A DNA stretch of 32,000 nt, taken from the NCBI RefSeq assembly GCF_000008305.1, contig NC_006055.1, forward strand, positions 150,001-182,000, in the 5' to 3' direction. Positions 2,057 through 31,418 of the stretch are shown piece by piece; the stretch's first letter is position 1, and the number at the start of each line of letters is the position of its first letter. The DNA is from Mesoplasma florum L1. Lineage in GTDB: Bacteria > Bacillota_I > Bacilli_A > Mycoplasmatales > Mycoplasmataceae. The notes below the pieces were generated by a model that did no database searches, was not told the DNA's origin, and was given only the letters and a program-made list of their open reading frames with translations. A program made the position numbers and the translations under genes.

Positions 2057-2313
2057 TGGAAAGAAATAGTAGAAGAATACTAGTTGGTAAAGTTGTATCT
2101 GACAAAATGGATAAAACAATTACTGTATTAGTTGAAACTTACAAAAACCACCCAATCTACAAAAAACGTGTTAAGTATTCTAAAAAATATAAAGCACATG
2201 ACGAACAACAAGTTGCTAAAATAGGGGACAAAGTTCAAATTATGGAAACACGTCCTTTATCAAAAACAAAAAACTTCAGATTAGTAAAAGTAGTAGAAAA
2301 AGCTATTTTATAG
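2056..2313 (+). CDS. rpsQ: 30S ribosomal protein S17 (uS17)
   Basis: [49 protein letters not shown]...; the ATG overlaps the rpmC stop. Confidence 0.95.
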
Positions 2314-2326
2314 GAGATAAAGAGAT

Positions 2327-2695
2327 ATGATTCAAACATTATCAAAATTAAAAGTAGCAGATAACTCAGGTGCTAAAGAAGTTCGTGTTATTCGTAATTT
2401 AGGTGGATCAGTTAGAAAGTTTACAGGAATTGGAGACATCATCGTTTGTTCAGTTCAATCAGCAACTCCAGGAGGAGCTGTTAAAAAAGGTCAAGTTGTT
2501 AAAGCTGTTATTGTTAGAACTACTAGAGAATTAAAAAGAGAAGATGGTACATACATCCGTTTCTCAGAAAATGCTGTAGTAATTATTAAAGAAGATAAAT
2601 CACCACGTGGAACTCGTATTTTCGGTCCAATTGCACGTGAAATTAAAGAAGCTGGATTTGCAAAAATCGCATCTCTAGCTCCAGAAGTATTATAG
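2327..2695 (+). CDS. rplN: 50S ribosomal protein L14 (uL14)
   Basis: [28 protein letters not shown]... (122 aa), a highly conserved L14 sequence. Confidence 0.97.
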
Positions 2696-2708
2696 GAGGA
2701 ACCAGAGA

Positions 2709-3038
2709 ATGAGCAAATCAAAAATCTTAGTAGGTGACGTGGTTAAAGTTATCGCTGGTTCACACAAAGGTGAATTAGGACCAATCACTTGAATATCAAA
2801 AGACAAAAAATGAGTATCAGTACAAGGGATTAACTCTTTAAAACATGTTAAACCTTCACAAACTGACTCAGAAGGTGGAATTAAAGAAGTTCCATCAAAA
2901 ATTAATTTATCAAACGTAGCATTACAAGATCCTAAAAACAAAGATGGTATTTCAAAAGTGGGATACCAAATTGAAGATGGTAAAAAAGTTAGAATTGCAA
3001 AAAAATCTAACTCACCATTAAAAAAGGCAAGTAAATAA
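2709..3038 (+). CDS. rplX: 50S ribosomal protein L24 (uL24)
   Basis: Table-4 translation [49 protein letters not shown]... (109 aa, KOW motif). Two in-frame TGA codons hide it from the ORF track. Confidence 0.93.
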
Positions 3039-3055
3039 GAAAGGGACATGAAGAA

Positions 3056-3598
3056 ATGAAATCAAGATTAGAAACTAGATATACTGAACAAATTGCTCCT
3101 GAATTATTTAAAGAATTAGGATATAAATCAGTAATGCAAGTTCCAAAACTTACAAAAATCGTTATCAACATGGGAGTTGGAGAAGCTACAACTGATCCAA
3201 AAAAACTTGATGCAGCTGTTGTTGAATTAGAACAATTAACTGGTCAAAAACCATTAGTAACAAAAGCAAAAAAATCATTAGCTGTATTTAAATTAAGAGA
3301 AGGAATGCCAATTGGTACAAAAGTAACTTTAAGAGGGAAAAAGATGTATGACTTCTTAGACCGTCTTACAAATGTTGCTTTACCACGTGTGCGTGACTTC
3401 AGAGGGGTTCCAAAAACTTCATTTGATGGATTTGGAAACTACACAATGGGAATTAAAGAACAAATTATTTTCCCAGAAATTGATTATGATAAAGTTCAAA
3501 AACTACGCGGAATGGATATCACAATTGTAACTACTGCAAAAACAAACGAGGAAGCATACAAATTATTAGAAAAATTTGGAATGCCTTTCGCTAAATAA
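3056..3598 (+). CDS. rplE: 50S ribosomal protein L5 (uL5)
   Basis: [44 protein letters not shown]... (180 aa). Confidence 0.96.
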
Positions 3599-3617
3599 TA
3601 AAGGGGATTAGGAATAA

Positions 3618-3803
3618 ATGGCTAAAAAATCATTAAAAGTTAAACAAGCTAAACACCAAAAGTTTGGCGTAAGAAACTACACTAGATGTAATAACTGTGG
3701 TAGACCACATGCTGTGCTTAAAAAATTTGGAATTTGTCGTCTATGCTTTAGAAAATATGCATACGAAGGTCAAATCCCAGGGATTAGAAAAGCTTCTTGA
3801 TAA
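3618..3803 (+). CDS. rpsN: 30S ribosomal protein S14, short zinc-binding (type Z) form
   Basis: [16 protein letters not shown]...[38 protein letters not shown]. The CxxC...CxxC zinc motif is present. The terminal TGA encodes the conserved C-terminal Trp, and the true stop is TAA at 3801-3803. Confidence 0.95.
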
Positions 3804-3834
3804 TAGGAAATAGAAAGAGTAAAGGAAATAAAAA

Positions 3835-4224
3835 ATGACAACAGACGTAATCGCAGATATGTTAACTAGAATCCGTAATGCAAACCAAAGAATGTTAAAA
3901 ACTGTTAACATTCCTTCATCAAAAATGAAATTGGAAATTGCAAACATCTTAAAAGAAGAAGGATTCATTTCAAGCTTCACTGTTGAAGGTGAAGTTAAAA
4001 AAACTATTACTATTGAATTAAAATATCAAGGAAAACAAAGAGTAATCTCAGGACTTAAAAAGATCTCTAAACCAGGTCTTAGAGTATATGCACCAGCAAA
4101 CGAAATCCCACAAGTATTAAACGGTTTAGGAATTGCAATAGTTTCAACATCACAAGGAATCATGACAGGAAAACAAGCTCGTCTATCAAACATTGGTGGA
4201 GAAGTATTGGCTTTCGTCTGATAA
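3835..4224 (+). CDS. rpsH: 30S ribosomal protein S8 (uS8)
   Basis: [24 protein letters not shown]...GGEVLAFVW. The final TGA is the conserved C-terminal Trp, and the true stop is TAA at 4222-4224. Confidence 0.95.
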
Positions 4225-12344: not shown

Positions 12345-13565
12345 ATGGATTCATTGAAAAAATTCAAAACTACAAAATTGACTAGTCAAGATCTTAATGA
12401 CTTTAAGATTAAATTGCATGCCAAGTATATTGAAATGTTAGAAGCTAATAATAATTTCTTTAAATTTAAAGAAGCTGAAAAGCAAGGCAAAATTTCAAAG
12501 GAAGAATTAGTTGAATATAAAAACAAATCAATAAAAGCAAAGAAAGCTTTTAAAGCAATTTGCCAAGATAAGTCTTTTTCAGAAAATTTAAAGAACATTA
12601 CAAAAATTTATAACTCAACAACAAGAAAAAATAGTTCTGTTATTTTAGAACAAGCTAAAGAAGAATTAATTGAAGCTAAAAACTTAAAAAGAGAAGCCAG
12701 AGATTCTGTTAAAGATCATGGTAGAGGTGCTCAATTAACTAAACTTGATAAGGTTGCAATTAAAGTGGAAAACTTAAAATTTAAATATGCTCCTGATTTT
12801 CCTTATGCTTTAAATGACGTTAGTTTTGAAATTAATGATGGTGAATATGTTGCTGTTATTGGACACAATGGAAGTGGTAAGTCAACTCTTTCAAAAATGC
12901 TTATAGGTGTGCTTTCTGCTCAAGAAGGACACGTAAGTATATATGGTAATGTAGTTACTCAAGATAATTTAGATCAAGCACGTAAATTTTTAGGTATTGT
13001 TTTCCAAAACCCTGATAATCAATTTATAGGTTCTAGTGTAGAAGCTGATATTGCATTTGGATTAGAAAATAAACGTGTTAATCCAAAAGAAATGCAAAAA
13101 ATAATTTATGATTCAGCTAAAAAAGTTGGAATGGAAAATTTCTTAGATAAAGAACCATTAAACTTATCTGGTGGTCAAAAACAACGTGTGGCTATTGCTA
13201 GTGCGCTTGCTCTAAATCCAGATATATTAATTTTTGATGAAGCAACAAGTATGCTTGATCCAAAAGGAAATAGAGAAATTAAAGAAATAATGGTTGAACT
13301 TAGAGATAAAATGAAAAAAACAATTATTTCTATTACTCACGACATGGATGAAATTCTTAACGCAGATAAAGTTATAGTTATGAATGGTGGTCGTATGGTT
13401 AAAATTGGTAAACCAGAAGAAGTTCTTAAAGAAAAAGAATTTTTAAGATCAATTAAATTAGAAATACCATTTTTATCTTTAGTTGAAGAAGCCTTAGGCA
13501 ATGAAGGAATTAAAGTAAAACATAGTCAAAATATGGATGAGTTGGTGAAACAGTTATGCAAATAA
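12345..13565 (+). CDS. ecfA1: ECF transporter ATPase EcfA1 with ~135-aa N-terminal extension
   Basis: The C-terminal ~270 aa form an ABC ATPase, with GHNGSGKST (Walker A), [12 protein letters not shown] (signature), [12 protein letters not shown] (Walker B) and an ITHD H-loop. A strong AGGGGGA SD lies 8 nt before ATG 12345. It occupies the canonical position after rplQ. Confidence 0.9.
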
Positions 13566-14503
13566 ATAAAAAAGAAATCAAACAAAATCTAAAAAAATGA
13601 AATGAAGAAAAAAAATCTATTAAATCATTTTCATTTACTGGTGATATTATTTTAGATAATGTAAGCTATACATATTCAAAAAAGACTCCTTTTGAATTTA
13701 GAGCACTTGATAATGCAGATTTAACAATCTCTGATAAAAAGATAACTTGTGTTATTGGTACAACTGGTTCTGGGAAATCAACAATGATTCAATTAACTAA
13801 TGGATTATTAATTTCTGAAACAGGTCAAACAATTGTTGGAGATTATAAAATCCCAGCAGGGCTTAAAAAAATTAAGGAAGTTAAAGATTTAAGAAGAGAA
13901 GTTGGACTTGTATTTCAATTTCCAGAATATCAATTATTCCAAGATACAATTGAAAAAGATATAGCTTTTGGTCCTATTCATTTAGGTGCTGACAAAGAAG
14001 AAGTTTATAAAAAAATACCTGAACTATTAGATTTAGTTTCTTTACCAAGAGAATATGCTAAAAGATCACCTTTTGAATTATCAGGTGGACAAAAAAGAAG
14101 AACTGCTATTGCCGGAATTATTGCAATGGATGGTAAAACATTAGTTCTTGATGAACCAACAGGTGGATTAGACCCAAAAGGTGAAGAAGACTTCATGAAC
14201 TTATTTTTAAGATTAAATAAAAATCAAGGAAAAAGAATTATTATGGTTACTCATAATATGGATCAAGTTTTAAAAGTTGCTGACGAAGTAATAGTTATGC
14301 ATGAAGGAAAAGTTATTTCAAAAGGGTCACCATTTGAAATATTCTCTAACCAAGAATTATTATCAAAAATACAAATTGAACCACCAAAATTATACAAACT
14401 TATGTATAAACTAAAAGAAAAAGGAACAGATTTATTAAATAAAAATATTAGAACAATTGATGAATTTGCAAAAGCATTTAAAGAAGTAAGAAAGGGGAAA
14501 TAA
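13556..14503 (+). CDS. ecfA2: ECF transporter ATPase EcfA2
   Basis: [25 protein letters not shown]...GTTGSGKST (Walker A)...[12 protein letters not shown]...[11 protein letters not shown]...VTHN. It overlaps ecfA1 by 10 nt and has one in-frame TGA near the 5' end (315 aa). Confidence 0.9.
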
Positions 14504-16284: not shown

Positions 16285-16438
16285 GTTAAGGGTGTTGTTA
16301 AAACAATATCACATAAGTAATGCACTGATAAAATAATCGTATGTTTTTGAATAAGCTTAGGCAAAGAAGGAAAACGATTTATTTATGAGTTCATCACAAC
16401 CGCACCCTCTAAAAAAGACACAATTGTGTCTTTTTTTT
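16285..16438 (+). ncRNA. candidate structured RNA, or structured 3' UTR of truA, ending in an intrinsic terminator; identity unknown
   Basis: Nested long-range pairings: AGGGTG (16289-94) with CACCCT (16403-08); CATAAGTAA (16312-20) with TTATTTATG (16379-87, one G-U pair); ATCGT...ACGAT (16336-40 with 16374-78). A terminator follows immediately. No convincing ORF or SD is present. Confidence 0.25.
16411..16438 (+). terminator. intrinsic terminator
   Basis: AAAAAAGACACAATTGTGTCTTTTTTTT: a perfect GACAC/GTGTC palindromic stem flanked by an A6 run and a T8 run. Confidence 0.8.
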
Positions 16439-16445
16439 CATTAAT

Positions 16446-16474
16446 TTGATAAAATTATATAAATACATTTTAAT
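16446..16474 (+). promoter_or_regulatory. candidate promoter for permease A operon
   Basis: TTGATA (16446-51), a 17-nt spacer, then TTTAAT (16469-74). An AAGGGAAGG SD at 16479-87 lies ahead of ATG 16496. Confidence 0.4.
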
Positions 16475-16495: not shown

Positions 16496-19400
16496 ATGCA
16501 TTTTAAAAAAATTTATTTGATGTTAAAAAACTCATTTAAAAATGCGACTAAAAGTAAAACACAATTAATAGGTGTTACTGTTTTAGCTTTTTTACTGTCT
16601 TTAGTTTTAACATTAGTTGTTTCAATGAACGTTCGTGTTATTGAAAAATATAAAGAAATGAATGAAAATTCAAGAGTTCATGATGCTGTTATTGATTTAA
16701 ACCCTTATGATAAAGTAGCAACTGGGGAAAGTGAAGAAACTGAAGAAGCACCAAAGAACCTTGTTGCAGCTCAACAATACTGAATATATAAATTACAAGA
16801 GAAATATTTTGAAGAATCAAGTGACTTACAATTTGAGTGATCTAGAACAGAAGCTAGAGAATTTTCTCAAGTAAAACAAAATGGTAATGACTTAACAATT
16901 AAAGCAATTACTAAAACTTCTCAAGAAAATAATTTTAGTAACCAAGAAGTAGATAAATTAGTTATTTTTGAAGGTGAAGACATACAAACTCATCACCAAG
17001 TTGTAATTGATCCAAACTATGCAAAAAATAATGGTATTAAATTAGGCGATGTTATTAGAATACAAGCTGATAACTTAGGAAATTCTTTATTAGTTAGAGA
17101 TTCTGACAATAAACAAGTAGCTAGTGATATAAAAGAAATTGAAGCTACAGGAACTGAAATTGATGCAATTGATGGTAAATATAATATTTACTATTCAAAC
17201 TATCAGTGATTTCAAGTTGTAGGATTTGGTAGTTCAGCTGATTTTATGTCGCCAATCTTTAATGCGTCAACTACATTACCAAGCCGTAACAAAGAAGTAA
17301 TGATTTATGTTAACCCAACAGCATTTGGATTAAAGTACAATCAAGAATCAAATTTATATGAATATAACCTAAACCAAAATGGTAATTTAACAGTTTCTTC
17401 AAATGTAGAAATTGAATCGTTTTATTCAATTAAATTTAAAGACGCTAAAAAAGCTAAAAGTACAGGTTTAGAACAATTTGAAAGTGACTTGAAAGAATTA
17501 ATTAGAAGAAATTCAAATAATAAAATAGTTTATGGAAAAGAAGATTCAAGCTACAGATTTAGTAAAAGAATTCTTTTAATTCAAAAAACTATTCGAACTT
17601 ATAATATAGCAGCCTTTGTAATATTTATTTTAATTTTATTTGTATGTTTATATACAATATCACTTGTTACAAAAAAACAAATTGAAAAAGCCTCAAAACA
17701 ATTAGGTACATTAAAAGCATTAGGATATAGAAAACGTATACTTGTTTATAATTTTGTTATGTTACCTGTAATTGCCTCAACAATTGGTGGATTATTGGGA
17801 TATATTGTTTCAATAAGCGTTTCAAATACTCTAACTAATGAATTTGCCAGTTATTTCTCACTTAATTATTCAAAATTTGATTTTGATTGAATTACATTAG
17901 TATTAATGATTGGAGTTATGTGATTTATTTTATCAGCGATATCATTTGTCATAGCTACAATGTTAATGCGTAAATCATCATTAAGCTTAATTACTGCAAC
18001 TTTTAATCAAAAAGCTAGTGCATTTAAAGCTAAATTAAGAAGTATTCATTTTAGAAAATCATTTGGTTCAAAATTAAGAAAAGCTTTATTAGTAGATGCT
18101 TTTGGAAAAATGATGGCAATTGGTTTTGTAGTATTACTTTCATCAATGTTATTTACAGTTTCGTTTGCTGCTCCAGATATTTTAAAAAGAAATGAAAAAG
18201 CAACTTATACTGGTGTTAAATATAAACAAATAGTTGAATATGCTCAGCCAAGTTATAATAACCCCCTAACCTTCGCTAAAACATTTAACCCTTCAACTAA
18301 ACAAGATGAAATGGTTTACTCAAAAACAGCTGGTGGATGAACAAGTTTAGCTTTAAGAGACAATGGTGATTTTGATTATGATCAAATCATGACTGATTAC
18401 TTTAATAATGAAATAAGTGAGAAATACTATTCAATTTTTATTCAAAACTTATTTACTGCATCAAGTGATGATGAATATGCAATTCCAAACCTTATTGAAT
18501 TATCATTAGCAAATATGAAACTTTTAAATTTAGAAGGTTCAATATTTGATAGTAACTACTTCAGACAATTATCTAAATATGGTGTGCCTGCCGCAAGTAA
18601 TTCAGATATATTAGGAAAAATGATTTCCCCTATCATTTTAAAACAATGATTTGATTACCAAAATTTATTTAGTGAAATTAATTCAGCAAAAACAATGTAT
18701 GAAGCAGGAGCTGCGATGCAAACTTTCTATGCTAAATATTCTGAATCAATTGGTTTATCTATAAGCAATGATTTTAGAAGTGATTATGGTACTAAAAAAA
18801 TAAGCGATGAAGAATGAATTAAAATGAGTGAACATTCTAAAATAAATGTATTTAATTCATCAAATGGTAACTTAGCAAATATGTATCTATTAAATAATGA
18901 GGATATGTTAAAAACATTATTAAAAGCTGAAACAGGTAAAATTGAATATGAAAATCAAACAAATCAAAACAATAAATTTAAATTAACTAATTCAAATTAC
19001 ACAGGAATAGGTTCATTTAGAATTGCATCAGAACACAATACTGAAGAATCAACTAATGATTATTATTTAGGTCTAAACTTCGATAAAATGGCTGAAGAAA
19101 ATGATAAAGATAAAGCAATAGAAGCTATCACAGATATGTGAGAATGATTTACATTCTTATTCAATAATCGTGTTGATCAAGCAATTATTCAATCAGCTTT
19201 CTCAAGACCTCCGTATTCTGTTAAACAAACATTGATTAATGCATTTAAATCAAATGATAAAAATTACTCAATGGCTTTCAACTTAGTTTCATATGATCCT
19301 AGTCAAGAAGCTTTAGGAACAAAAATCCAAGCTGAAAAAGATGGTAAAAACTTTAAAATTTATGGAATCGATAATGATGATAGATTTTTAGATTTAAGAG

Positions 19401-20785
19401 ATTCTAACAATAATAATTTAATGGAAGAATTATTTAATTTTAAAGAAACAAATGGAATCGTTATTAATGAAACACTAGCTAAAACTTTAAATCTTAAAGA
19501 AGGTCAAGAAGTAGATTTCAATGTTATTCAAAACGAATTACAAGATGCATCAAAAGGTGAAATAGTTCCTTATAAATTAAATGATTGAGATACAAGCAGT
19601 TTATGAAACGGAACTGATGGATTTAAACAAAATTCAAGAACAAACAATTTAGGTTCAAATATATTAGTAACAAGACCTGATTTAGACGATAAAAATGCAA
19701 TTAACTTTATGACAAGCATTTCTAAACCAACTGAATATTACAATTCTGTATTAAACGGTGACACAATCATTGCTGATAAAACAACAAATACAAAATTTAA
19801 AATTGTTGGAATTCATGAAGGATATGGATCAGCTCAAGCATGAATAAAAAATGATGATGCAAAATCTATTCTTAAATATGATGAAGTTGAAAACTACTTG
19901 TGAAAAAATTTCTTTGCAAAACAATGAAATACACAGTTTGGATATTCAACACTTGATCAATTCAACAATAAAATAATTATTGAAGATAAAGATCAAGAAG
20001 AGTTAAAAATTTACAATAAAATTAAAGGTTTAGATTTAACAAAGAATGGTCTAGATGATTTAGATTTATTTAAAAACAAATTTATTGAACATCCACAAAA
20101 TAATGATGAAAAAGCGTTAGGTGAATTGATTCTTAAAATATTTGAAAATCAATATCCAGTTTTCAATTATAAGTATTCTAACAAAACTGATGTTGCTGAT
20201 TACAATACAGTTATGAGTGTTTCAACAGCATTTGGAGACTATTCTCCAACAGCGCTAAATGGAATGGAAGCTAAATTCAGTGCTACTCACGCAGCATTTG
20301 ATGGTAGTGGTATTGGAACTGTAGAATGAATATTACCTATTGATTTATCAAAAGATATGTTAGAAGAAATATCACAATTGATTTTATTATTAATTGCAAT
20401 AGCCATTGTCTTAATACTATCGTTAACATTTGTAATTATTTTACTAACAACATCAATTATTATTACTGACAACATAAGGTTTATTTCAACAATGAGGGTC
20501 TTAGGATATCATGATGCTTATGTTGTTAAAACAGTAATGGGAATGTATCTAATTGTTATATCAACAATGTTTGCTGTGGGATTTGCAGCAGGATGATTCA
20601 TTTTTGCAAAAGCTGTAAACATTATGTTATTAAGCGGAGTTGTTTTACCAATAGCATTCCCTATATGATTACCAATTGTAGTTTTCTTAGGAATTGTTGG
20701 TATTTATGCAATAGCAATTTTCGCAGGTTACAAACGAATAACAAAAACTAACTCTGTGCAAATTTTACAAAATGCAGACCTCTAA
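16496..20785 (+). CDS. giant double-FtsX-domain (MacB/type VII ABC-like) permease, 1429 aa ('permease A')
   Basis: Eight same-frame ORF-track fragments plus short pieces join across TGA with no TAA or TAG. Order of elements: N-terminal TM (LIGVTVLAFLLSLVLTLVV); extracytoplasmic domain with a MacB-like segment (VVIDPNYAKNNGIKLGDVIRIQ); a TM bundle with FtsX signature QLGTLKALGYRKR (~17700-17735); a second TM; a ~730-aa extracytoplasmic domain (IVINETLAKTLNLKEGQEV); and a C-terminal TM bundle with signature STMRVLGYHDAY (~20483-20520). Confidence 0.85.
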
Positions 20786-20805
20786 TTAGAAAGGGTATTT
20801 AAATT

Positions 20806-23346
20806 ATGAAAAAAATATTATTAAGTTTAAGTGCTCTAACTATTGGAGCAACTCCGGCTGTATCATTATTGAATGTTGGTCAAAAACAAGTAATAACTCA
20901 AGTAACTTCAGAAATTCAAAAGAAAATCGATGAGACTTCTGTTTTATTTAAAGCACCAATTATAACTAATGCTCAAAAACAAAATTCAGATGTCACAACA
21001 AATTGATTAAATGATCAAAAAGTAAGTGACATTAGCAATATTAATAGTGCTTTAAGTTATGCAAATTTTAACGCTGAGAAATATGATATGAAATCAGTTG
21101 AAAAAACTTTAAATAAAATTTATAAAGACAAAGATTATAAATATAAAAATGAAGATGCAACATCAGAACTTATATTTGGCGCAGCTGATAAAGGTGTAAG
21201 CTTATTAGAAAATTCAATTGATGATGATGGATTAAAGGCTGAAGGCGTTAACGAATTATTGAATTGAATTTCATATGTTTCTTTTGGAACAGGTTTAGTG
21301 GGTGCGGTTAATGCTAAAAGTATAGATAAAAGTATTTTAAATTTAAATAAAAATATTGAATGAATAGCAGCTTTTAAAAATACTCCTATACCAACATTAA
21401 GTAAATTAAATAATGAATATGATGTCTATACATTCCAAGATTTGCAAGACTTTATAATAATAAGTATAGGAAACTTGCTTTCTGAAGCTAGCGGATTTGA
21501 AGGAGATAGTTTTGCTCAATCTACAGGATGAGGGGGTAGAACAAAATGAAATAACATAGTCAAAAAAGAACTTGATTTAGATACTATGAAAAAAGTTGCA
21601 ATACCACAAAAAAATAAAAATAGCTCAAATGTTCCAAAAGGTCAAACAAGCTGAGATACAACAACAAATGGAAACAATAGAGAATTTTCAATATATGATG
21701 AAAGAAGCATTGTACAACAAGAAACTGATTTTATTCAATCAATAGTAAAACACATAATTAACAGTGGCAACGGATTAAAAATAGAAATGAATTCAAAGAA
21801 TCTTCAATCAATTGTTAATATTGTTTATTCTATTTCTTGATATATTAGTTCATATGATAAATATTCTGTTTATGTTATGCCAAGTGATGATAATTACTTA
21901 TTTTCAGAAACAAAATCAAATATGACAATTTTTAATGAACAAAGAACAAAAACTATTGAGAAAACAGATTTATCAAATAGTTTAAGTGGAATTTTGAGTT
22001 TATTCAAAAGTGTATTTATAAGTAAAGATAGAATGACATCTAATAGAGGTTTAAAAATTTTATTCCAAAATGGTGATAAAACAACAAATAATTGAGGATC
22101 TGAGTTATCTATATTTTTAAGTTTTATAGGTGGAACATGAACAAGAAATAATTTTAATAATGGTTTAAATGCTTTATTAATTGGAGCAATGGCTGGTGTA
22201 ACTAATTCTAAATTACTTGATAATGTTAAAAGTATTGATACTATTTTAACTTTAGTTGGTCTTAACAGAAATTCATTAGGTTATGTTATTGGAAATATTT
22301 TAAATGCAACATTAGCCAATACTAATAGTACAAATGTTTTCTATGGATTAGCAACAAGTACATTAGTGACAATAGTTGGTGGTATAATACCAGACGTTGG
22401 TAAATATTTAGATGAAATTAAAAAAATGGCCAATGACAATGCCTTTGATCATACAATGACAAAATTAGTTTCAACAAAATTAAATGTACTAATGGATTAT
22501 TTAGGTAATGTTATGGATGTATTTTCACCACCAGCTGAAACTGATCCACCTAGAGAACCTTCAACGCTTCCTAATAAATCAATTTTAGAATTTATGAATA
22601 TGGGAGTAATGGGAATAACTGTTGGAAATGTGATATGAAGTGGTTTAAACTTTATTAATACTTCTTTATCTGAAATAATGAAACCATTAGGTCTTCTAGG
22701 AGCTCTATTAAGTGATGACGTATCAAGAAATTATAATTTCTATGTAAAAGATAAAGAAAATAAAGACTCTCTTACAACTTTAGAACTAGAACAATTACTT
22801 GGATATAAACCTGAAGATGTATTTGAGGGAAACACTAAAACATCAGATCTAGCAATTGTTTGATCTATGATGCGCTTTGTTAATACTGAACAAGGAAAAA
22901 ATAAAGTTGTAGGTGTTTCTTTAAAAAATTCAAATGGTACTTCTGAAGAAATAATTTATGGTCATAAAGCATGAAAAATGCTTCTTGGTCTAAACTATGA
23001 TGAAATGAATTATTATGATAATTCATTGTTATATTGAGCAAATGAATTATTAACAAATGGATTAACATCTAAAATAATTCAATGACCTGTAAAAATGACT
23101 AGAAAGTATATTGATTACAATTTGAGCGATATAACTTTTAATAGAAATAAAAAAATGAATTACTGATCAAATAAAGATTTATTCTCAACACAATTTGTAA
23201 GTTATCAAGAAGATTCTAAACAAGAAGTTTTAAATTACAAGATAATGTATAAAGTTAAGAAAGATGTTTATTACACATATAATGTGTCAGTTTATAAAGA
23301 GAATACAAATTCAAAATATAAAATAAATTCATTTAACAGAATATAA
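20806..23346 (+). CDS. exported protein of unknown function, 846 aa, Cys-free paralog of the lipoprotein at 23373-25871 ('A2')
   Basis: Four same-frame fragments join across TGA. The N-terminal signal-like sequence is MKKILLSLSALTIGATPAVSLLNVGQ, with no Cys. An AAAGGG SD is present, and the gene starts 20 nt after permease A. It shares the motifs DDNYLFSETK, KILFQ and WGS, and a Tyr/Lys-rich C-terminal module, with the minus-strand paralog. Confidence 0.8.
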
Positions 23347-23376
23347 AAAATGCGAGTTATTAATTCGCATTTTTAT
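23345..23376. terminator. bidirectional intrinsic terminator shared by convergent paralogs
   Basis: AAAAAATGCGAG-ttattaa-TTCGCATTTTT: an A-run upstream, a T-run downstream and a 7-bp stem. The stop codons of both convergent genes abut the hairpin. Confidence 0.8.
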
Positions 23377-25871
23377 TTTTTATAAAAGGCTTCAATTTGG
23401 TATTTAACATTTATTTCTTCTTGATCACTACTTGGAAGTAATAGTTTAACAACGTATGTATTATTAACTATTCCATTTTTATAATTAATTTCATATGTTA
23501 CGTGACTATCTTTTTTACTATCTCTGAAGTTTTCATAGCTAATCAATTTGGTTTTATAATGAATGTAATTTAAATCTTCTAAGTAAGATTGATTTTGTTT
23601 GTTATCAAAAATATCTGCTATAGTTTTTAAAATGTCATTTATTCCTGACATTATTCCAGTAATCAAATTACCAGTTTCATCGTTTCATAATGTCCCAATA
23701 GAATAAAGTATTGTTCCTGGTCTAAATTGATTATAGTCAATTACACCATTATCAAGTTCTACTCCAAGACCCATTATTCATTTAAGACCATCTTTATTTG
23801 TAAAAGTTCTTGTAGTTTTTAAACCAAACTTATTACCACCTGGTATTGTAATACTGATACCTGTATTATCTCTACTAGAAAGTGCTGTAGCTAATGCTAA
23901 GATGTAAGTATATTCCTTACCTTCTTCATTTTTAAAAATTAATTCTGGTGATATTTTGATTTCACCTAAAGTTTGAAGAGTGCTATTACTATTTACAATT
24001 TTAAATTCAGGATCTAAGAAAAGAGAAGTATCATTGAAAGCATCTGCAATGTTAACTATTTTCGGAGCAACACCTTTACCTAATAATGCAATTAAATAAC
24101 TTGTCCCTTTTGCACCTAGTCTTAATAAATCGCTAAGTTTTAAAGTTTTTGTTAATTGAATATCTATTATTTGTTTTAATGAAATTTTTGGTAATTGAAC
24201 AGGTAAACTATTTTCTAATCCGAAAATTTCCATTAATTTTCTTATGTCTGTATTAATTAAGTACCCTAAAAATTTATTTGTAAAAGGAGCTTCAGAATTT
24301 AACAAACTATCAATTATTGGTTTAACTTTAGTATTAACAGATGTTTGAATAGATGTTATTTGTTCTGCTAAAGGTTTATTTTTTATGAATGATCATTCTA
24401 ACAAGTTTTTTAATGAGTCATCTATTTGTTTTATAAATGTTTCAAAGAAATGATCCATATCAATACCTGTTAAAATAGAACTAATTAAACCTGAAACTAC
24501 TCCACCTATTTGTTCAGAACCCATCCCAATAGAATTTAAGAAATCCATTATTCCACCATCAGGATCAAAAGAAGCAGTATATCCTTTCACTAAACCATCT
24601 AGTGAAGAACTTAAAAATGTATTTAATGCTCCATTTTCTGTTTTACCATTTGAACCTCATTCACCAATTTTAAAATCTAATGTTTTACTTCCAAATTTAA
24701 TTATTTTAGTATTGAAATCAAGTTTTTGATTTTTAACAGTTATATCATCATCAACTTGGAAAAGTATTTTAAAAGTTCTAAGTAGTTTAAAAGATTCTTT
24801 ATCTTTTTCACCAGAAAATAAATCATAGATAAATTGCATTAAACCATCTACATTAGTTGAGTTAATAATTTCTTTGTCAATTTTTGAAGAGTTTACTTGA
24901 TGAATTACTTCTAAGTTAGTTTTATCAGTAGAAAATATGTGATTATCATCCAGCATTTCATCAGAATGTAAATTGTATTCATCAGCTGTAAAATTTTGAA
25001 TATATCAGTTTATTCCAAATAAGGCATTCATAAGTAGAGCTAAGCTTTGACTTGTAAAATTAATTTCAGGTTTCTCAGCATCCTTACTGTTCATTTTTTT
25101 AATTATTAATTTTCAAACACTAGAATTATGTGCATAATATTTTTCATTTATATTATCTTTATTTTCACTAATGACAAAAGGTTTTTCTATTTCAACGCTA
25201 AACAAGTTAGCAACAAAAGAAGTCAATTCATTTGAGAAATAAATTTTTAAGTCTAAATTAGTTTCAACACCTAATTTAATTAATTCATTGTAATTAGTAA
25301 CTTTAACGTCTTTCATTATTTGTAAACTACTTGAAATTTTAGGCATAACTTTTTGAATTGAAGAAATATTATCAGCTTTTAATGAATCTAATAATAAAGG
25401 CAATGCAGTATTTCATAAAGTTGGATCGAAATTCACACCAATTAATTTATAAATCTCATTGTAAGCTTTTTGGATAGTGCTTATTAATTCACTAGCACCA
25501 TTTCCAGTAGCTGGTCTATCGAACTCTTCTTTGCTATATACTTCATTTTTCATATATTCACTTGATTGTTTTGTATCTAAGAAAGTGTCAAATATTTTAG
25601 CCATAGATGTTGTATCTTTTGAATTACTTGTTAAATCCCCAACTTTTAACTTAGAAATATATTTATCAACTGATTGACCATTGTAATCTTCGGAATTGGC
25701 TAAAATAGCACCTTTAAAATAATTAGACGTTGAAGAAATTACTTCTGCTAATTTATTATCTATACTTTTTTGAATTGTATCTATATATTTACAAGATACT
25801 ACCGCCATTGCTGGTGTTGTTGCTAATGAAGCTGCACCAATCAAAGAAATTAATTTTTTCATTCCTACCAT
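23373..25871 (-). CDS. putative surface lipoprotein of unknown function, ~830 aa ('B-lipo'), paralog of 20806-23346
   Basis: Six same-frame minus-strand fragments join across TGA. The N-terminus is M(VGM)KKLISLIGAASLATTPAMAVVSC|KY, with a lipobox VVSC, and that Cys is the only Cys in the protein. ATG 25862 is an alternative start. Size and architecture resemble the large Mollicutes paralogous lipoprotein families; membership is unverified. Confidence 0.8.
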
Positions 25872-25881
25872 AATAAAATAA

Positions 25882-25910
25882 TTTTACACTTTTTGAAGCT
25901 TTTTTACACT
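25882..25910. repeat. direct repeat TTTTACACT x2 (20-bp register) in the divergent promoter region
   Basis: TTTTACACT occurs at 25882-25890 and 25902-25910, in the 102-bp gap between the divergently transcribed lipoprotein and permease B. The second copy overlaps a TTTACA -35-like hexamer, which has TATAAA 17 nt downstream. Confidence 0.5.
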
Positions 25911-25973
25911 AAACATAGATGATTAATATAAAATATATAATATGTGAAAACACTTATAGTTGGGGAAAAAGGT

Positions 25974-28900
25974 ATGAAAATAACATGACTTTTATTTAAG
26001 CAAGGAATAAGAAGTATGTTCAAATTTAAGATTCAATTCATTGTGGTTGTACTGCTTTCTTTTTTTGCGTCTTTTTATTTGGCTTCAACAACAAGCTTAA
26101 ATTCTAGAATGAATAAGTCATATGATGACATTGTAAGAAATTATGAAAAATTTGATTATTCATATTCTACTAAAGCTAGTGAATCAAATTTATCAACATC
26201 AAATAAAACATTATTACCAATCCTGGACTTGATGCCTACTTCAACAAATTATTTTGTTCAAGCTAATAAATCAATTCATGATTCTTTTAATGTTGTTTTA
26301 AATAACCACGGAATTAAAACAGAAGGTTATGAAGAAAATTTAATAACAAAAACATTTTTTGATCAAAACACTGGTAAACCAACACAAGCTATGCAAAATG
26401 TTTGAAACGGTATTCCATGATATAATTCTTGAAAATTTTTCTCTCTTCTAAAATCTGATCCTAATAAAGGTGAGTTTTTATACTACCCACAAAGTTTTAA
26501 AACAAACTTTGGTTCTAATTTAGAAAATTTTGGTGGTGGTGACTACTTTAATGCATACGCTTCAATGACCTATTTAATAGTTAAAGAAATTTCAGATACT
26601 CTTTATAATGAATTATTACTTGATGAACCTAATGAATCATTTGTTCAATCTTTAATTTATAAATATTGAAAAGCAAATGATTTAAAGGTAGAAAAAGATT
26701 TTAAAAAAATTGATGCTCCAATTGATCTTAATCAAACAAATAATTTTGATTGAATTTCAGAATATAAAAAACAAGTATCTAGTTTAGGAGAATTCCAACT
26801 TTATATTTATAATGCTCTAGAATCAATAGGTTATTTTATAACATATCAAATTAACCAATTTTTAAGTAATTCTTATGCAAGAACTGCTAAATCAATTAAT
26901 TTTGATTGAAATATTGCTGGAAGCGATGAAGAAAAATCAAAACTTTATGTAACAAAATTTAATGAAATGGCAGAACAAACACAAGAAATGAAAATATTCA
27001 TGGAATTACATACATCTTCTGGTACTAGCGAAATTACTGGTAAAGATGGTGAAACTGTTGAATCAATTTCAAATTATAATAATGAACTAACTTTTGAATA
27101 TATTTTTGGAACAAACTTGGTTGATCAAACTTTAAATCCTAAGTTTACTGTTAAATATGGTAACGCAGAAAATACTTATCAAATAAAAGGTATGGATAAT
27201 CAAATAATCGGGAGTAATTTAGACGCCAAAAAAGATGGGTTAAGAGGTTTAGCTAACCCCACAACAATTAAAAAAGATGAAGAATACAATGAATATTCTA
27301 TTTCTACAATGAATTTACTAAATCCTTGAGAAAAAAATGATTTAAGTCAAAAATGAGAAAATCAAAATACAGGTAAAAAATATGACTATGAGTATGATGC
27401 ATCAAAATACGCAACAATGTATGATTGATCAAATATTTATTCAAATAATATTTTTCATCAAAAAATGGCTGCTGAAATAAATGATTTGGACTTGTATTTA
27501 AGAGAAGAAGCATTTATGTATGACAGAAATACAAAAACTAATTTTAGATTTGTTGTAACAGACAATAATTACGATTATAACTTCAAAGTTACCGCTGGTT
27601 TACCGGTTATGCATTCAAGTGAAATTGTAATTTCACAGCAATATGCATTTAAAAATGGCTATTCTGTTGGAGACAAAATAAAAATAGGAAACTCAAACTT
27701 TATTATTTCTGGTTTTGGTAGTGATGCACTTACATACTATCCACTTGTTGATCCTGAAGTACCTTTAAGTGACGTTGCAAACTCAGTTATTGTTTATGCA
27801 CCAAAATATGTAATTAACGAAATAATGAAGAATGGTAATGAAAAAGACGTAACATTTACAACTTATTATTTCATTAGAGATAATTTAAAAGATAAAGAAA
27901 CAATTGGCAAAAGAATGTCTAATTTTGATTCATCTCTTTTATCAAATAAATCAAAATTATCTGAAAGTTTTATAGACTCAAAGAATGAAAATTTAAGTTT
28001 TGGAGATAAAAAATCAGCAAATGAAATTAAATTATTTGAAAAAACATATTTTAACTTAAATTGAACACTACAACCCAAAATGTTAGAAATTGTGACAATT
28101 ATTTCAATTGTTACTTCTGTTCTTGTATTAATCATGTCATTTGTTTCAATTGTTTTTGGAATTAAAAAAACAATTGATCATAACTCAAGCCAAATTGGTT
28201 TCTTAAAAGCTAAAGGTGTAGATTCATACAGATTGTCATTATCATATATTGGTTATTCAATAATTTTATTATTTATAATAGTTCCGTTAGCATGATTGGC
28301 AGCAGGATTCTTTCAAGAAATAATTACGAAACTTTTTGCTACGTATTTTTCAACAACATTATATGAATTTGTGTTTGATTATAAAATTTTACTAATTCTA
28401 TTAGTTGTTTTTGGAATTGGGTCATTAATATTGAGTTATTTCATTGCGTTCTTACTAGTTTCAAAAGATGTTATGCAAATTATCAATAAAGAAAGCCAAC
28501 AAAGAAAAGTTAGAAATTGATTGCCAAGAAAATTAAATGTTATTAATATAATCGATTTCAAATTTAGATTCCCACTTAAAATATCATTAAGAGGTTCTAA
28601 ACAAATAGCTATGATAAGTTTTACAGCTTTAATTACAACATTTGTTATAACTTTCTCAGTGCTTACTCCTTCTATGCTTAACGTGTATATAAGAGATGCT
28701 GGAAAATACTATCAATATAATAATCAATATGTGATGCAAGATCAGTTAACTGGATTACCAACAGCTAAAGCTTCATTAACAGCGTCAAGAGGTTTACCTA
28801 CAACAGAAGAACTTTATCAAGAACCAAAAACTCTTTTAGGAACTTCAACAAGAGACCAAATATCTGATATTTACTTTGATAACAATAAGTATTACACAGA

Positions 28901-31418
28901 TTCAAGTTGAGATAGTAGTATATTCCCTCCTATTTTATTAGGTGAAGGATGAACAAATGGACAATGAACAAAAGATGAGTTAAATTGAACTGAAAAATGA
29001 ATATTTGATGAAAATTCTTCAACAAGAGATGACACATCAAAGTTACTAAAAATGGCAATGCCTGTAATTGGTCAATTAGGTAACTTAAACGGGATAACAA
29101 TTTCAGCAGGAGAATTTGAAAAAATATCAAGTTATATCTGAAATGCTGAAATAAATCCAAATACAGGAAAATCATATTTTGACGGTCAACAAATAAACCC
29201 GAATACATTACAAAATATTTGAGAAATGAAGAAGAACTCTGCAAAAGGAAGTATTGAATTTATTCAAATGGCTTTACAAGTAGCTATGCAATCTCTAGCA
29301 AATTCAGAAGATAATGGCCTACCTACTATTGAAAGACCAACAGACACAACTTGAAAAGAAGATTTAATTTTATTAGCGCTAGCATTTTTACCAAATGTAG
29401 GACAACAATACTTAAAAGATTCACCTAATAGAGCTTCTCAATTTGGTATTTCTATTAATGCAGAAAATTATACTCCTGGAATTGAAACATTATCTACAGA
29501 TGTATATACACAAATGAATAATAATTTTGTAAATGTAAATGGATTGAAAGATAACCAAACTGTTTATAATTTAGACTCAATTGATGATGATAAAGTGTTT
29601 ATTAAAGATCAAGAAACAATTGATAAATTAAATGTATTATTTAATGACAAAGAAAATTATACAGGTGGAGATATTTATCTAAATGATGATTTCAAAATAT
29701 ATGATTCAAATACAAAAGTATTGAATATACCTGTTGTAACTAATCTAAAAAGTTATAAACAACAAAACTTAAATAAATCAGTTCCAATTCAAGGAATGAG
29801 TTACAAAACTCTTTCAATTGGAGGAAAAGAAGTTCCTAAAAATGCTTGAATATATGACAATAGAGAAATAACAAATAATAAAAACTTATTTAGTAGTGAT
29901 TTAAATATGAAAAATGAAGAAGATTGAATTAATCCTTCAAAAATAGATCCAAATAAACTAACATATACTAAACAATTTAGATATGATGACAATGGAAATA
30001 TAACATCACTAAATGACCAATCAAAATGATTTATTAATAGTATTGTTAATGATCAATATAATATTGATGGTCTTGATTTTGAAATAAGACCATACTATCA
30101 CTACAATAACTTAAAATTATTTGTGCCTAGAAACTTAACTGATATAGATTCTCTTTTAAATGGAAAAAACGCTAACACAAGTAAAACATCAAAAAATAGT
30201 TCTAGTGATTGAAGATCTAATATTGATATATGACATGGTTCTGTGTTAAGTGTTGATGTTCCAGAAGAAGTAAAAAAAGCTTGAGGTTCTGAATATGCAA
30301 ATCAAACTGAATGAGAATGAATTTCACCATTTAGTTTAAATTACAGTAGAAAAATTACTGATCCTAACAGAAAAGGTTGAATTCAAAATATTGATACTGA
30401 TTTACAACAAATTTACACTTGAGCAAGTGACAAAATTGTCGCTAGTGGATCAAGTTCAGATGCAGTTGTTACTGTTTCAAACAAACTTCCATCATTTTTA
30501 AGTGATGTTAGAATGCAATCTGTTGATACTATTCAAACATACAACGGAAATATTGTTATTGCTGATCAAGATATTCTAAATTTATTAACAAATAAATCTA
30601 CAGAGAAATACTTGCCAGTAGATTATGATTTTTATGGTGCTCCAATTAAACAAATACCAAATGGGCAAATCACAAGTGGTGATCATACAATAACAGTTAA
30701 TTCAATGAGAAATCCAATAGAACAATTAAACATGATGAGAGAAAATAAAACTTTCTTCATGAAAGATGATTTAATGAATAAATATGAAATCACTGACCAA
30801 GAAGCGTATAGAAAAGTTCTACAGAATAGAGATTTCAACTCAAAATTCTCTTCATTTGATGAAGCTTATGGAATAACTGGTGGGGTTAAAGGGATTATGG
30901 TTGATTCTCCAGGTGTATTTGCTCTTCAAGGAAGCACAGATAGAATTGAAGAAACTTTAGGTATGACTTACAATAAAATTGATTTAGTAAGTACTCAATT
31001 GGGTATGATAATAAGCATTAGTGAATCTATCTTACTTGTTGCATTGTTCTTAATTACAGGAATTATAATAATTTCAGTGTTAATAATAACAATTATTTCT
31101 GATGTCTACATTATGAAATATCACCGATTCATGGTAACGATGAAAGCGTTAGGATATTCAAATAAAGAAACAATTATAAACACTATACTTATACCAGCTG
31201 TTATATCAACAATATTTGTATTGATTGGTTATCTTGTTGGTAAATGATTGTTAGGTTCAATGATGATTCAAGCTCAAAAATTCGGAATATTTATTCCATT
31301 GATAACTAATTGATGAGCAACACCATTAATCTTATTAGGTATTATAATTATGTTTGTACTAGCCTTTACTTTCTCTTTAAGAAAACCAATTAAAGATGAG
31401 TTAAAAACATTAACTTAA
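25974..31418 (+). CDS. giant double-FtsX-domain (MacB/type VII ABC-like) permease, 1814 aa ('permease B')
   Basis: ATG 25974 follows a GGGGAAAAAGG SD: MKITWLLFKQGIRSMFKFKIQFIVVVLLSFF.... Nine same-frame ORF-track fragments join across ~34 in-frame TGA (manual count) with no TAA or TAG. FtsX signatures are IGFLKAKGVDSYR (~28198-28232) and VTMKALGYSNKE (~31134-31170). MacB-like segment: SEIVISQQYAFKNGYSVGDKIKIG. The two extracytoplasmic domains are ~660 aa and ~760 aa. Confidence 0.85.

Follow-up and report, generated by a model that had tools for sequence, protein, structure and literature searches.

How are two giant membrane proteins energised when no ATPase is encoded beside them, and do the large exported proteins encoded next to them belong to the same machine? 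These questions are raised by a block of four genes, mfl156 to mfl159, at positions 16496-31418 of a 32,000-nucleotide stretch of the Mesoplasma florum L1 genome (the window, i.e. the whole stretch that was analysed, which corresponds to genome positions 150,001-182,000 in the published gene table). Two of the genes encode permeases with two FtsX units each, here termed PermA and PermB, and the other two encode exported paralogs of about 840 aa, termed A2 and B-lipo. The analysis places both permeases in the type VII class of ATP-binding cassette (ABC) systems, assigns both exported proteins on sequence grounds to the MOLPALP family, and points to a likely ATPase encoded elsewhere in the genome. 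Taken together, the block would provide a wall-less cell with a single membrane with two type VII ABC modules for mechanotransmission at the cell surface, and this explanation as a whole is given a probability of about 0.5.

The locus and its reading frame

Under translation table 11 the region is broken into dozens of short open reading frames (ORFs). Under table 4, in which TGA encodes tryptophan, it yields four long ORFs, which agree exactly with the number, coordinates and lengths of the genes given in an earlier note on this DNA that had been made from the letters alone:

16496-20785, plus strand: PermA (mfl156), table-4 ORF of 1429 aa
20806-23346, plus strand: A2 (mfl157), table-4 ORF of 846 aa
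23373-25871, minus strand: B-lipo (mfl158), table-4 ORF of 832 aa, annotated start at 25862
25974-31418, plus strand: PermB (mfl159), table-4 ORF of 1814 aa

PermA and A2 are separated by 20 nt, A2 and B-lipo converge across 26 nt, and B-lipo and PermB diverge across 102 nt. In a homolog search, A2 proved 100% identical to one Mesoplasma florum L1 protein. The block is flanked by ecfA-ecfA'-ecfT-truA upstream and by ligA downstream.

The permeases are fused type VII dimers

Searches against Pfam located two stretches matching FtsX (PF02687) in each permease (E 1.5e-28 and 1.8e-16), with scores of 99.7 bits for PermA and 60.7 bits for PermB that lie well above the cut-off of 25.5, while MacB_PCD, the second Pfam model named in the earlier note, was matched at a sub-threshold level only (E 0.48). 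According to hydropathy, both proteins are composed of one transmembrane (TM) segment, a large ectodomain and three further TM segments, and this unit is present twice, which amounts to 4+4 = 8 TM segments. The arrangement of TM segments and extracytoplasmic domains (ECDs), in residue numbers, is as follows:

PermA: TM1 24-42, ECD1 43-372, TM2-4 373-486, TM5 530-557, ECD2 558-1297, TM6-8 1298-1410
PermB: TM1 16-40, ECD1 41-705, TM2-4 706-837, TM5 878-896, ECD2 897-1686, TM6-8 1687-1802

The repeats are joined by linkers that are polar by the same measure (487-529 in PermA, 838-877 in PermB). Each three-TM bundle carries an LKALGY-type motif after its first helix, namely LKALGY at 406 and MRVLGY at 1333 in PermA, and LKAKGV at 744 and MKALGY at 1723 in PermB, and the coupling motif residues Q402, G404, G410 and Y411 are invariant across orthologs. 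Between genera, the ectodomains show roughly the same degree of conservation as the TM regions. Moreover, in an alignment of PermA with PermB the N-terminal halves pair with each other, as do the C-terminal halves, and therefore the fusion is older than the divergence of the two permeases.

Solved relatives recognised by sequence are MacB, FtsX, LolE and YbbP. Structure modelling of the permeases covered residues 1-505 of PermA, i.e. one N-terminal half with ECD1. The AlphaFold2 model built from 15 orthologs (predicted local distance difference test, pLDDT, 81.7; predicted template modelling score 0.76) features a helix at 21-59, a mixed alpha/beta ectodomain and three helices at 356-398, 413-451 and 465-491. 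It matches whole chains of LolE, MacB, YtrF, LolC, YbbP, HrtB and BceB over about 500 columns with E values down to 6e-9, the best match being LolE in complex with a lipoprotein (9rlc_E, E 6e-9) and YbbP ranking among the top ones (E 7e-8), while the matches to FtsX span only about 200 columns. Modelled ECD1 is in addition similar to the periplasmic domains of LolE (5udf) and MacB (3ftj) taken on their own, with probabilities of 0.92-0.98, and, as predicted by the model, a Porter/Sabre-type core is present in ECD1.

Because each permease contains two FtsX matches within an eight-TM topology, and because the modelled N-terminal half of PermA resembles LolE, MacB and YbbP, each permease consists of two LolC/LolE-like units joined covalently into a pseudo-heterodimer and falls into the type VII ABC class (MacB/LolCE/FtsX). 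In every unit, TM1 leads into a predicted ectodomain of the Porter/Sabre type that contains large insertions, and the bundle of three TM segments bears the coupling-helix motif. The description of the permeases as covalently fused MacB/FtsX dimers, put forward in the earlier note, is borne out by the paired FtsX matches, the repeated unit and the fold of the N-terminal half of PermA.

A2 and B-lipo are probable members of the MOLPALP family

The paralogy of A2 and B-lipo, likewise proposed earlier, is supported by BLASTP (E 1e-10 over 219 aa, together with colinear N- and C-terminal segments) and by a single family profile that recovers both. B-lipo reaches 62.2 bits against TIGR04547 (MOLPALP family lipoprotein), just below the cut-off of 65, carries the lipobox AVVSC, scores 30 bits against the Mollicutes lipoprotein signal NF038029 (cut-off 24) and is labelled Mollicu_LP in CDD. 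A2, on the other hand, matched none of the curated family models; its UniRef name is 'MOLPALP family lipoprotein', and PF27873 is precomputed on orthologs of both proteins. Judged from these similarities, A2 and B-lipo probably belong to the named, uncharacterised MOLPALP family (TIGR04547/PF27873), which has no described function, and not to a family of known, unrelated function.

The lipobox cysteine is absent from 12 of 12 A2-type sequences, and every B-lipo-type sequence features VVSC-x-Y-x-DT. By this signature A2 represents a predicted non-lipidated MOLPALP subfamily that lost the lipobox cysteine; its database name 'lipoprotein' is probably wrong with respect to lipidation, and the protein may be signal-anchored or secreted. 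The AlphaFold2 model of A2 (pLDDT 71) is mostly helical with a C-terminal antiparallel beta-sheet. A role of A2 as a P116-like lipid-binding protein was considered and found unsupported, as no significant fold match in the PDB was obtained. Domain searches with A2 and B-lipo revealed neither a recognisable catalytic or adhesin domain nor a match to any substrate-binding protein (SBP) family, and domain and fold searches returned no LytM/CHAP/NlpC-type domain with a coiled coil.

An exhaustive profile search for the family among 1.84 billion proteins yielded 27 cluster representatives, a scan of genome contigs with the MOLPALP alignment found two loci only, and a JGI metagenome scan turned up no family member. 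Word-indexed homolog searches with A2 and B-lipo returned Mesoplasma matches only, and all named MOLPALP matches are from Mesoplasma or Spiroplasma. The family, as delimited by these searches, is small and Mollicutes-restricted with several paralogs per genome, and M. florum itself encodes four CDD-labelled Mollicu_LP copies in addition to A2. The literature found on MOLPALP mentions the family in passing and contains nothing on function, and the same holds for function in the literature found on FtsX in syn3 or mycoplasma and on MacB of Mollicutes. One of the paralogs, the 672-aa Mollicu_LP protein mfl324, has no adjoining FtsX gene and is followed by mfl325, annotated as 'fatty_acyltransferase_like', an adjacency that gives a weak hint of a link between MOLPALP and lipids.

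A2 differs from its surroundings in its variation. Between L1 and a near-identical genome (locus L001, ~96-97% identical to L1), A2 shares 48% protein identity and every neighbouring gene 95.5-99.4%, and the blastn alignment of the two genomes, with flanks ~96-97% identical, is interrupted at one feature:

21290-22835, plus strand: hypervariable central segment of A2 (aa ~162-677), with two deeply divergent allele classes

In a set of 11 A2 alleles, two classes can be distinguished by the central ~500 aa, with 27-28% identity between the classes, and M. florum strains carry one class or the other. Among strains of the M. florum group, identity is ~95% over the N-terminal 160 aa and ~100% over the last ~90 aa. 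A2 is therefore a mosaic gene, and the pattern suggests recombination together with selection, either balancing or diversifying, that acts on an exposed domain.

Permease and partner form a recurrent couple

Pairs of the B-lipo/PermB type were found in five instances, which comprise three layouts, divergent and co-directional, in different genomic contexts (identities refer to mfl158/mfl159):

mfl158/mfl159: divergent, 102 nt; reference pair
L001: divergent; lipoprotein 96.5%, permease 96.8% identity
L008 (a Mesoplasma-group relative): divergent, ~100 nt; lipoprotein 37%, permease 46% identity
L002 (an endosymbiotic Spiroplasma): co-directional with a gap of 8 nt, in an unrelated context; lipoprotein 30%, permease 39% identity
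mfl260/mfl261 (same genome as the reference pair): co-directional, 27-nt gap; paralogous pair

In both L002 and L008 full-length PermB orthologs adjoin B-lipo orthologs. On a broader scale, a lipoprotein-type gene adjoins the giant FtsX gene in 8 of the 12 cases examined, often at a gap of 4-8 nt or with an overlap, and lipoprotein-like ORFs account for at most 11% in the examined loci. On this comparative basis, permease and ~840-aa protein of the B-lipo/PermB type form a non-random couple.

The surroundings of PermA are of a different kind. Its position right after truA, with rplM-rpsI farther downstream, is kept in M. feriruminatoris (L003), M. yeatsii, Spiroplasma diminutum (L004) and a further genome (L007); the arrangement is ancestral to the Spiroplasma/Entomoplasmatales/mycoides lineage, and the break in synteny pointed out in the earlier note is not one specific to M. 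florum. The gene downstream of PermA varies: in M. feriruminatoris it encodes a DUF285 (PF03382) repeat lipoprotein (L003 14314-15429, E 2.4e-57), and in Spiroplasma lipoproteins of 311-347 aa that are unrelated to A2. The idea that A2 is an expanded form of these small lipoproteins was rejected, as no relation was found. The couple inferred in the earlier note is thus supported for B-lipo and PermB by the five pairs, and the association is less strict for PermA, the neighbour of which is usually a lipoprotein but changes family or is absent.

Several further arrangements were observed at these loci. In M. feriruminatoris, a 936-aa PF27873 lipoprotein is encoded 2.4 kb farther along, beyond rplM-rpsI. 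In S. diminutum, the stretch after truA (L004 2636-15190) encodes, in this order, an FtsX protein of 1461 aa, a TM protein of 235 aa, a lipoprotein of 670 aa, an FtsX protein of 1380 aa (4-nt gap) and a lipoprotein of 347 aa (4-nt gap), with rplM-rpsI after them, an arrangement that resembles a duplicated module. Downstream of the PermB ortholog of L008, two ORF fragments of 237 and 127 aa (2266-3839) match PermB and, by that similarity, seem to be what is left of a second permease copy that has decayed.

A candidate motor encoded in trans

A tblastn search (genetic code 4) of the window with a MacB-clade nucleotide-binding domain (NBD) detected only ecfA (12810-13343) and ecfA' (13691-14308) of the energy-coupling factor (ECF) system, and none was found within 16496-31418 at E<=10; as previously stated, the block lacks an ATPase and the ECF pair provides the sole ATPases of the window. 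Across ten loci, no NBD is encoded in cis except beside a different, smaller FtsX gene in Spiroplasma sp. DGKH1 (L006). At the level of the genome, the annotation tables of M. florum contain one ABC_MJ0796_LolCDE_FtsE protein, which is also the sole K02003 entry, namely mfl019, and these published tables thereby provide one candidate for an orphan FtsE/LolD/MacB-like ATPase.

The mfl019 gene is located at genome positions 25861-27675, between hsp33 and a hypothetical gene and ~140 kb from the block. The partial sequence of its product comprises an N-terminal extension of ~390 aa rich in Lys, Glu and Ala, about 65% of the protein, followed by the start of a MacB-type NBD. The ATPase of Spiroplasma sp. 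DGKH1 (L006 1264-2190, 308 aa), which is encoded two genes upstream of a double-FtsX permease of 1112 aa, is identical to the Mfl019 fragment at 33 of 55 positions, the pre-NBD segment included, and has an extension of ~70 aa. Its best scores are to DevA, LolD, MacB, YbbA and FtsE, with MJ0796, MacB, BceA and YbbA as solved relatives. A long N-terminal extension is unusual among NBDs of the MacB clade.

Published proteomics gives ~46, ~103, ~67 and ~24 molecules per cell for mfl156, mfl157, mfl158 and mfl159, respectively, 317 for Mfl019, 32 for mfl261 and 20 for mfl262. Six FtsX permeases are listed in the published table, five of which were identified here. Two NBDs for each detected permease (46+24+32+20) would require 245 molecules, and the 317 copies of Mfl019 are therefore in keeping with a single motor used in common. 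Expression of the partners coincides, with levels of a similar order of magnitude for all of them, and the lipoproteins exceed their permeases 2-5 fold. In the Supplementary Dataset of PMC7745072 (file 9), the domain and sequence columns are displaced against the gene rows, the mfl159 row carrying the label and sequence of mfl019, and the abundance columns appear correctly aligned. Taken together, Mfl019 is likely the trans-encoded answer to the puzzle of the missing ATPase.

Transcription of the block and the PermA leader

Data on transcription start sites (TSSs), terminators and transcription units were taken from the Matteau 2020 datasets (5'-RACE, RNA-seq), and -10 boxes and terminators were confirmed by sequence inspection. 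Co-expression of permease and partner is documented therein, since mfl156 and mfl157 form a single transcription unit (TU_077), as do mfl260 and mfl261, and the ECF genes constitute a separate unit with a terminator at its end. The regulatory features of the block are:

16288-16440, plus strand: candidate structured leader or attenuator of PermA, with a strong published TSS at 16288
16449-16461, plus strand: second promoter of the PermA-A2 unit, -10 TAAAAT, published TSS 16461
23350-23369, both directions: bidirectional intrinsic terminator common to A2 and B-lipo, from the published table, with the hairpin ATGCGAGTTATTAATTCGCA in the sequence
25872-25973, both directions: divergent promoter region, TSS 25874 (minus) for B-lipo and 25942 (plus) for PermB, each with -10 TAAAAT

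An alternative GTG start of PermB at 25944 is unlikely, because the published TSS lies at 25942 and an element resembling a Shine-Dalgarno sequence, GGGGAAAAAGG, precedes the ATG.

The stronger of the mfl156 start sites (16288) is situated upstream of the truA terminator and gives rise to a leader of ~150 nt, in which a long closing helix (GGGTG...CACCC) is followed by an intrinsic terminator (16415-16431) with a T-run. The leader folds with a minimum free energy of -38.7 kcal/mol (z = -4.6), and its motifs TTAAAACAATRTCA and AAGAAGGAA recur upstream of the PermA orthologs of L007, M. yeatsii and, in part, S. diminutum. A search of 16288-16440 against Rfam matched no family, an alignment of five leader sequences yielded no consensus structure, and an Rfam scan of the whole window (1-32000) reported no family at gathering score despite the large cluster of ribosomal protein genes. 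The leader is possibly an attenuator or a small RNA.

Proposed mechanism

If the block encodes two type VII mechanotransmission modules, A2, which is not lipidated, would be the partner of PermA, and the lipoprotein B-lipo that of PermB. Each permease would be powered in trans by two copies of the MacB-clade ATPase Mfl019, and Mfl019 would be common to all FtsX permeases listed for the genome. In analogy to the 2:1:1 complex of YbbAP-TesA, one permease, two Mfl019 and one partner would assemble. The ectodomains would be set in motion as ATP is bound and hydrolysed, and would in turn act on the docked partner. Because of what LolCDE-LolA, YbbAP-TesA, HrtBA and BceAB do, the work performed might, speculatively, consist in passing a hydrophobic cargo, be it a lipid, an acyl chain or a molecule with a lipid anchor, from the outer leaflet to the partner or in the reverse direction. 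The mfl156 gene is essential, its 4.3 kb being free of insertions (P = 2.6e-7), and a homolog is present in JCVI-syn3.0; it is conceivable, again as a speculation, that the PermA system serves membrane or lipid homeostasis.

Several observations weigh against this mechanism. With regard to essentiality, mfl157, mfl158 and mfl159 are dispensable in rich medium, mfl159 with several transposon insertions, and mfl019 is scored non-essential, a call which denotes at least one transposon insertion anywhere in the gene. Moreover, mfl019 is scored as absent from syn3.0, whereas mfl156 is scored as essential and present; if Mfl019 were the only motor of PermA, mfl019 should be essential too. With regard to pairing, the PermA orthologs of M. 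yeatsii and L007 have no adjoining lipoprotein, the lipoproteins beside other PermA orthologs come from unrelated families, and MOLPALP genes occur without a permease neighbour (mfl324, L003 16571-19381 and a tandem array in L007). Finally, the A2 model found no significant fold match in the PDB, and no cargo can be read from its fold.

A broader version joins four propositions: that one orphan MacB-clade ATPase with a long charged tail powers at least five fused LolCE-like permeases; that every one of these permeases serves a large surface protein of its own throughout the Spiroplasma/Entomoplasmatales/mycoides lineage; that lipids or lipid-anchored molecules are moved between the environment and the sole membrane in cells devoid of a periplasm; and that PermA/mfl156 is an unexplained essential function of syn3.0, with A2 dimorphic through phage or host selection. 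Such lineage-wide, Lol- or Mla-like surface machines are a tentative proposal, and the four parts are doubtful to hold jointly.

Alternative explanations

Among the alternatives, allosteric control after the manner of FtsEX survives best, though it is itself considered unlikely. Motion of the ectodomains would switch a partner such as an enzyme, adhesin or receptor on or off without any transfer of cargo, following the logic established for type VII systems by FtsEX with EnvC or PcsB (PMC12646458). The conserved termini of A2 around a hypervariable exposed middle are what would be expected of a docked module that displays a surface-interaction domain. This explanation is opposed by the lack of a recognisable catalytic or adhesin domain in A2 and B-lipo, and the known targets of FtsEX do not exist in a wall-less organism.

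Next in rank, and improbable as well, is a release of the Lol type, in which the permease would extract the neighbouring lipoprotein by its acyl chains and shed it or hand it over, so that the neighbour is the cargo. The resemblance of the N-terminal half of PermA to lipoprotein-bound LolE, the lipobox in B-lipo, mfl260 and most neighbours, and the excess of lipoproteins over their permeases are in line with this explanation. It is countered by the A2 subfamily, which, lacking the lipobox cysteine, would offer no acyl chains to grip, by the missing outer membrane and the lack of a LolA-like acceptor in the block, and by the fact that Lol systems are not encoded beside individual substrates.

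Adjacency without functional coupling is rated lower still: lipoprotein genes, abundant in Mollicutes, would have come to lie beside permeases through shared ancestry of the locus. The PermA neighbour, changing its family between lineages and missing in two genomes, as well as the unpaired MOLPALP genes would be readily explained in this way. The B-lipo/PermB pair, however, outlasts changes of orientation and context between Mesoplasma and Spiroplasma, the paralogous pair mfl260/mfl261 is co-transcribed, and neighbours of this type accompany 8 of 12 permeases, several at gaps of 4-8 nt.

It is very unlikely that the permeases operate without an ATPase of their own class, either as passive scaffolds or channels or by borrowing the neighbouring ECF ATPases, the genes of which lie just upstream. 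The scarcity of NBDs in cis across the ten loci, with the smaller FtsX gene of L006 as the sole exception, and the contrasting essentiality and syn3.0 retention of PermA and mfl019 speak for such an arrangement. The coupling-helix motif, however, is strictly conserved in both halves, an NBD of the MacB clade exists and is abundant, the ECF genes form a transcription unit of their own that ends at a terminator, and ECF A-components dock on EcfT and not on coupling helices of the FtsX type. Least probable of all is a conventional importer with the lipoprotein as SBP, as known from Mollicutes ABC importers that typically have binding lipoproteins in the same operon, since the A2 model, helical with a terminal beta-sheet, does not have the periplasmic-binding-protein fold, no SBP family was matched, and no type VII system is known to import in the manner of an SBP-dependent transporter.

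Comparison with known systems

The reading as mechanotransmission modules finds its closest characterised analogues in YbbAP-TesA and LolCDE, and the block belongs to neither. The earlier note knew of no characterised system of such kind; YbbAP-TesA of E. coli, a 2:1:1 complex of an ABC transporter of type VII and a lipid hydrolase (PDB 9GE6-9GE8; McAndrew et al. 2025, PMC12646458), fits in general terms. In common with the block, two FtsX units and two Porter/Sabre ectodomains reside on one polypeptide, the ATPase is a separate protein of the MacB clade, and the gene of the extracytoplasmic partner adjoins and faces the transporter operon; in addition, YbbA is among the top matches of the Spiroplasma ortholog of the candidate ATPase. 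On the contrary, YbbP (804 aa) has 10 TM segments (4+2+4) with a TM5-TM6 pair linking the repeats, whereas PermA and PermB have 8 TM segments by hydropathy, lengths of 1429-1814 aa and ectodomains of 330-790 aa that are two to four times larger. Furthermore, ybbA is part of the ybbP operon, while the candidate ATPase described here is encoded 140 kb away and apparently shared, and TesA is an SGNH hydrolase, while neither a fold nor an activity is known for MOLPALP proteins.

LolCDE-LolA resembles the block in the structural match of LolE to the N-terminal half of PermA, in the unequal ectodomains of LolC and LolE, in its association with lipoproteins and in that one member is essential. It differs in that LolC and LolE are two individual polypeptides whose operon also encodes LolD, whereas the permeases studied here are fused and have no NBD in cis. 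Moreover, Lol requires an outer-membrane destination together with LolA/LolB, while Mollicutes possess a single membrane and the block has no LolA-like gene, and A2 lacks a lipid anchor. FtsEX (with EnvC, PcsB, CwlO or RipC) shares the FtsX-family mechanotransmission to an extracytoplasmic partner without transmembrane transport, but FtsX, the gene of which adjoins ftsE, is small, has 4 TM segments and forms homodimers, and its partners activate peptidoglycan hydrolases. As for the MOLPALP family, B-lipo and mfl260, like their orthologs, are proteins of ~800 aa that belong to it or come close to doing so, from which the A2 subfamily differs in not being a lipoprotein. In the M. pneumoniae group, very large double-FtsX permeases (MG_064/MG_065, MG_467/MG_468) have an adjacent ATPase gene, which is given here as a lead only.

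Significance

All four genes already have an annotation in public records, namely 'ABC transporter permease' or 'MOLPALP family lipoprotein', and published omics data include them. In the literature searched, no description was found of a coupling of permeases to MOLPALP proteins, of a single trans-encoded NBD or of a type VII reading of the essential minimal-cell gene, and the eLife paper on syn3A metabolism does not treat these genes. M. florum and the related JCVI-syn3.0 serve as models of a minimal cell, and many of their essential genes are still without a function. Among these, mfl156 is essential, conserved and expressed, and is annotated merely as 'ABC transporter permease'; its placement in the type VII class provides it with a named candidate motor (mfl019) and with candidate partners (mfl157 and the MOLPALP family). 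If correct, the proposed explanation would extend type VII ABC biology to bacteria without a cell wall or outer membrane, would add to this class a fused eight-TM architecture and possibly an arrangement in which one ATPase serves many permeases, and would supply the first functional context for the MOLPALP family.

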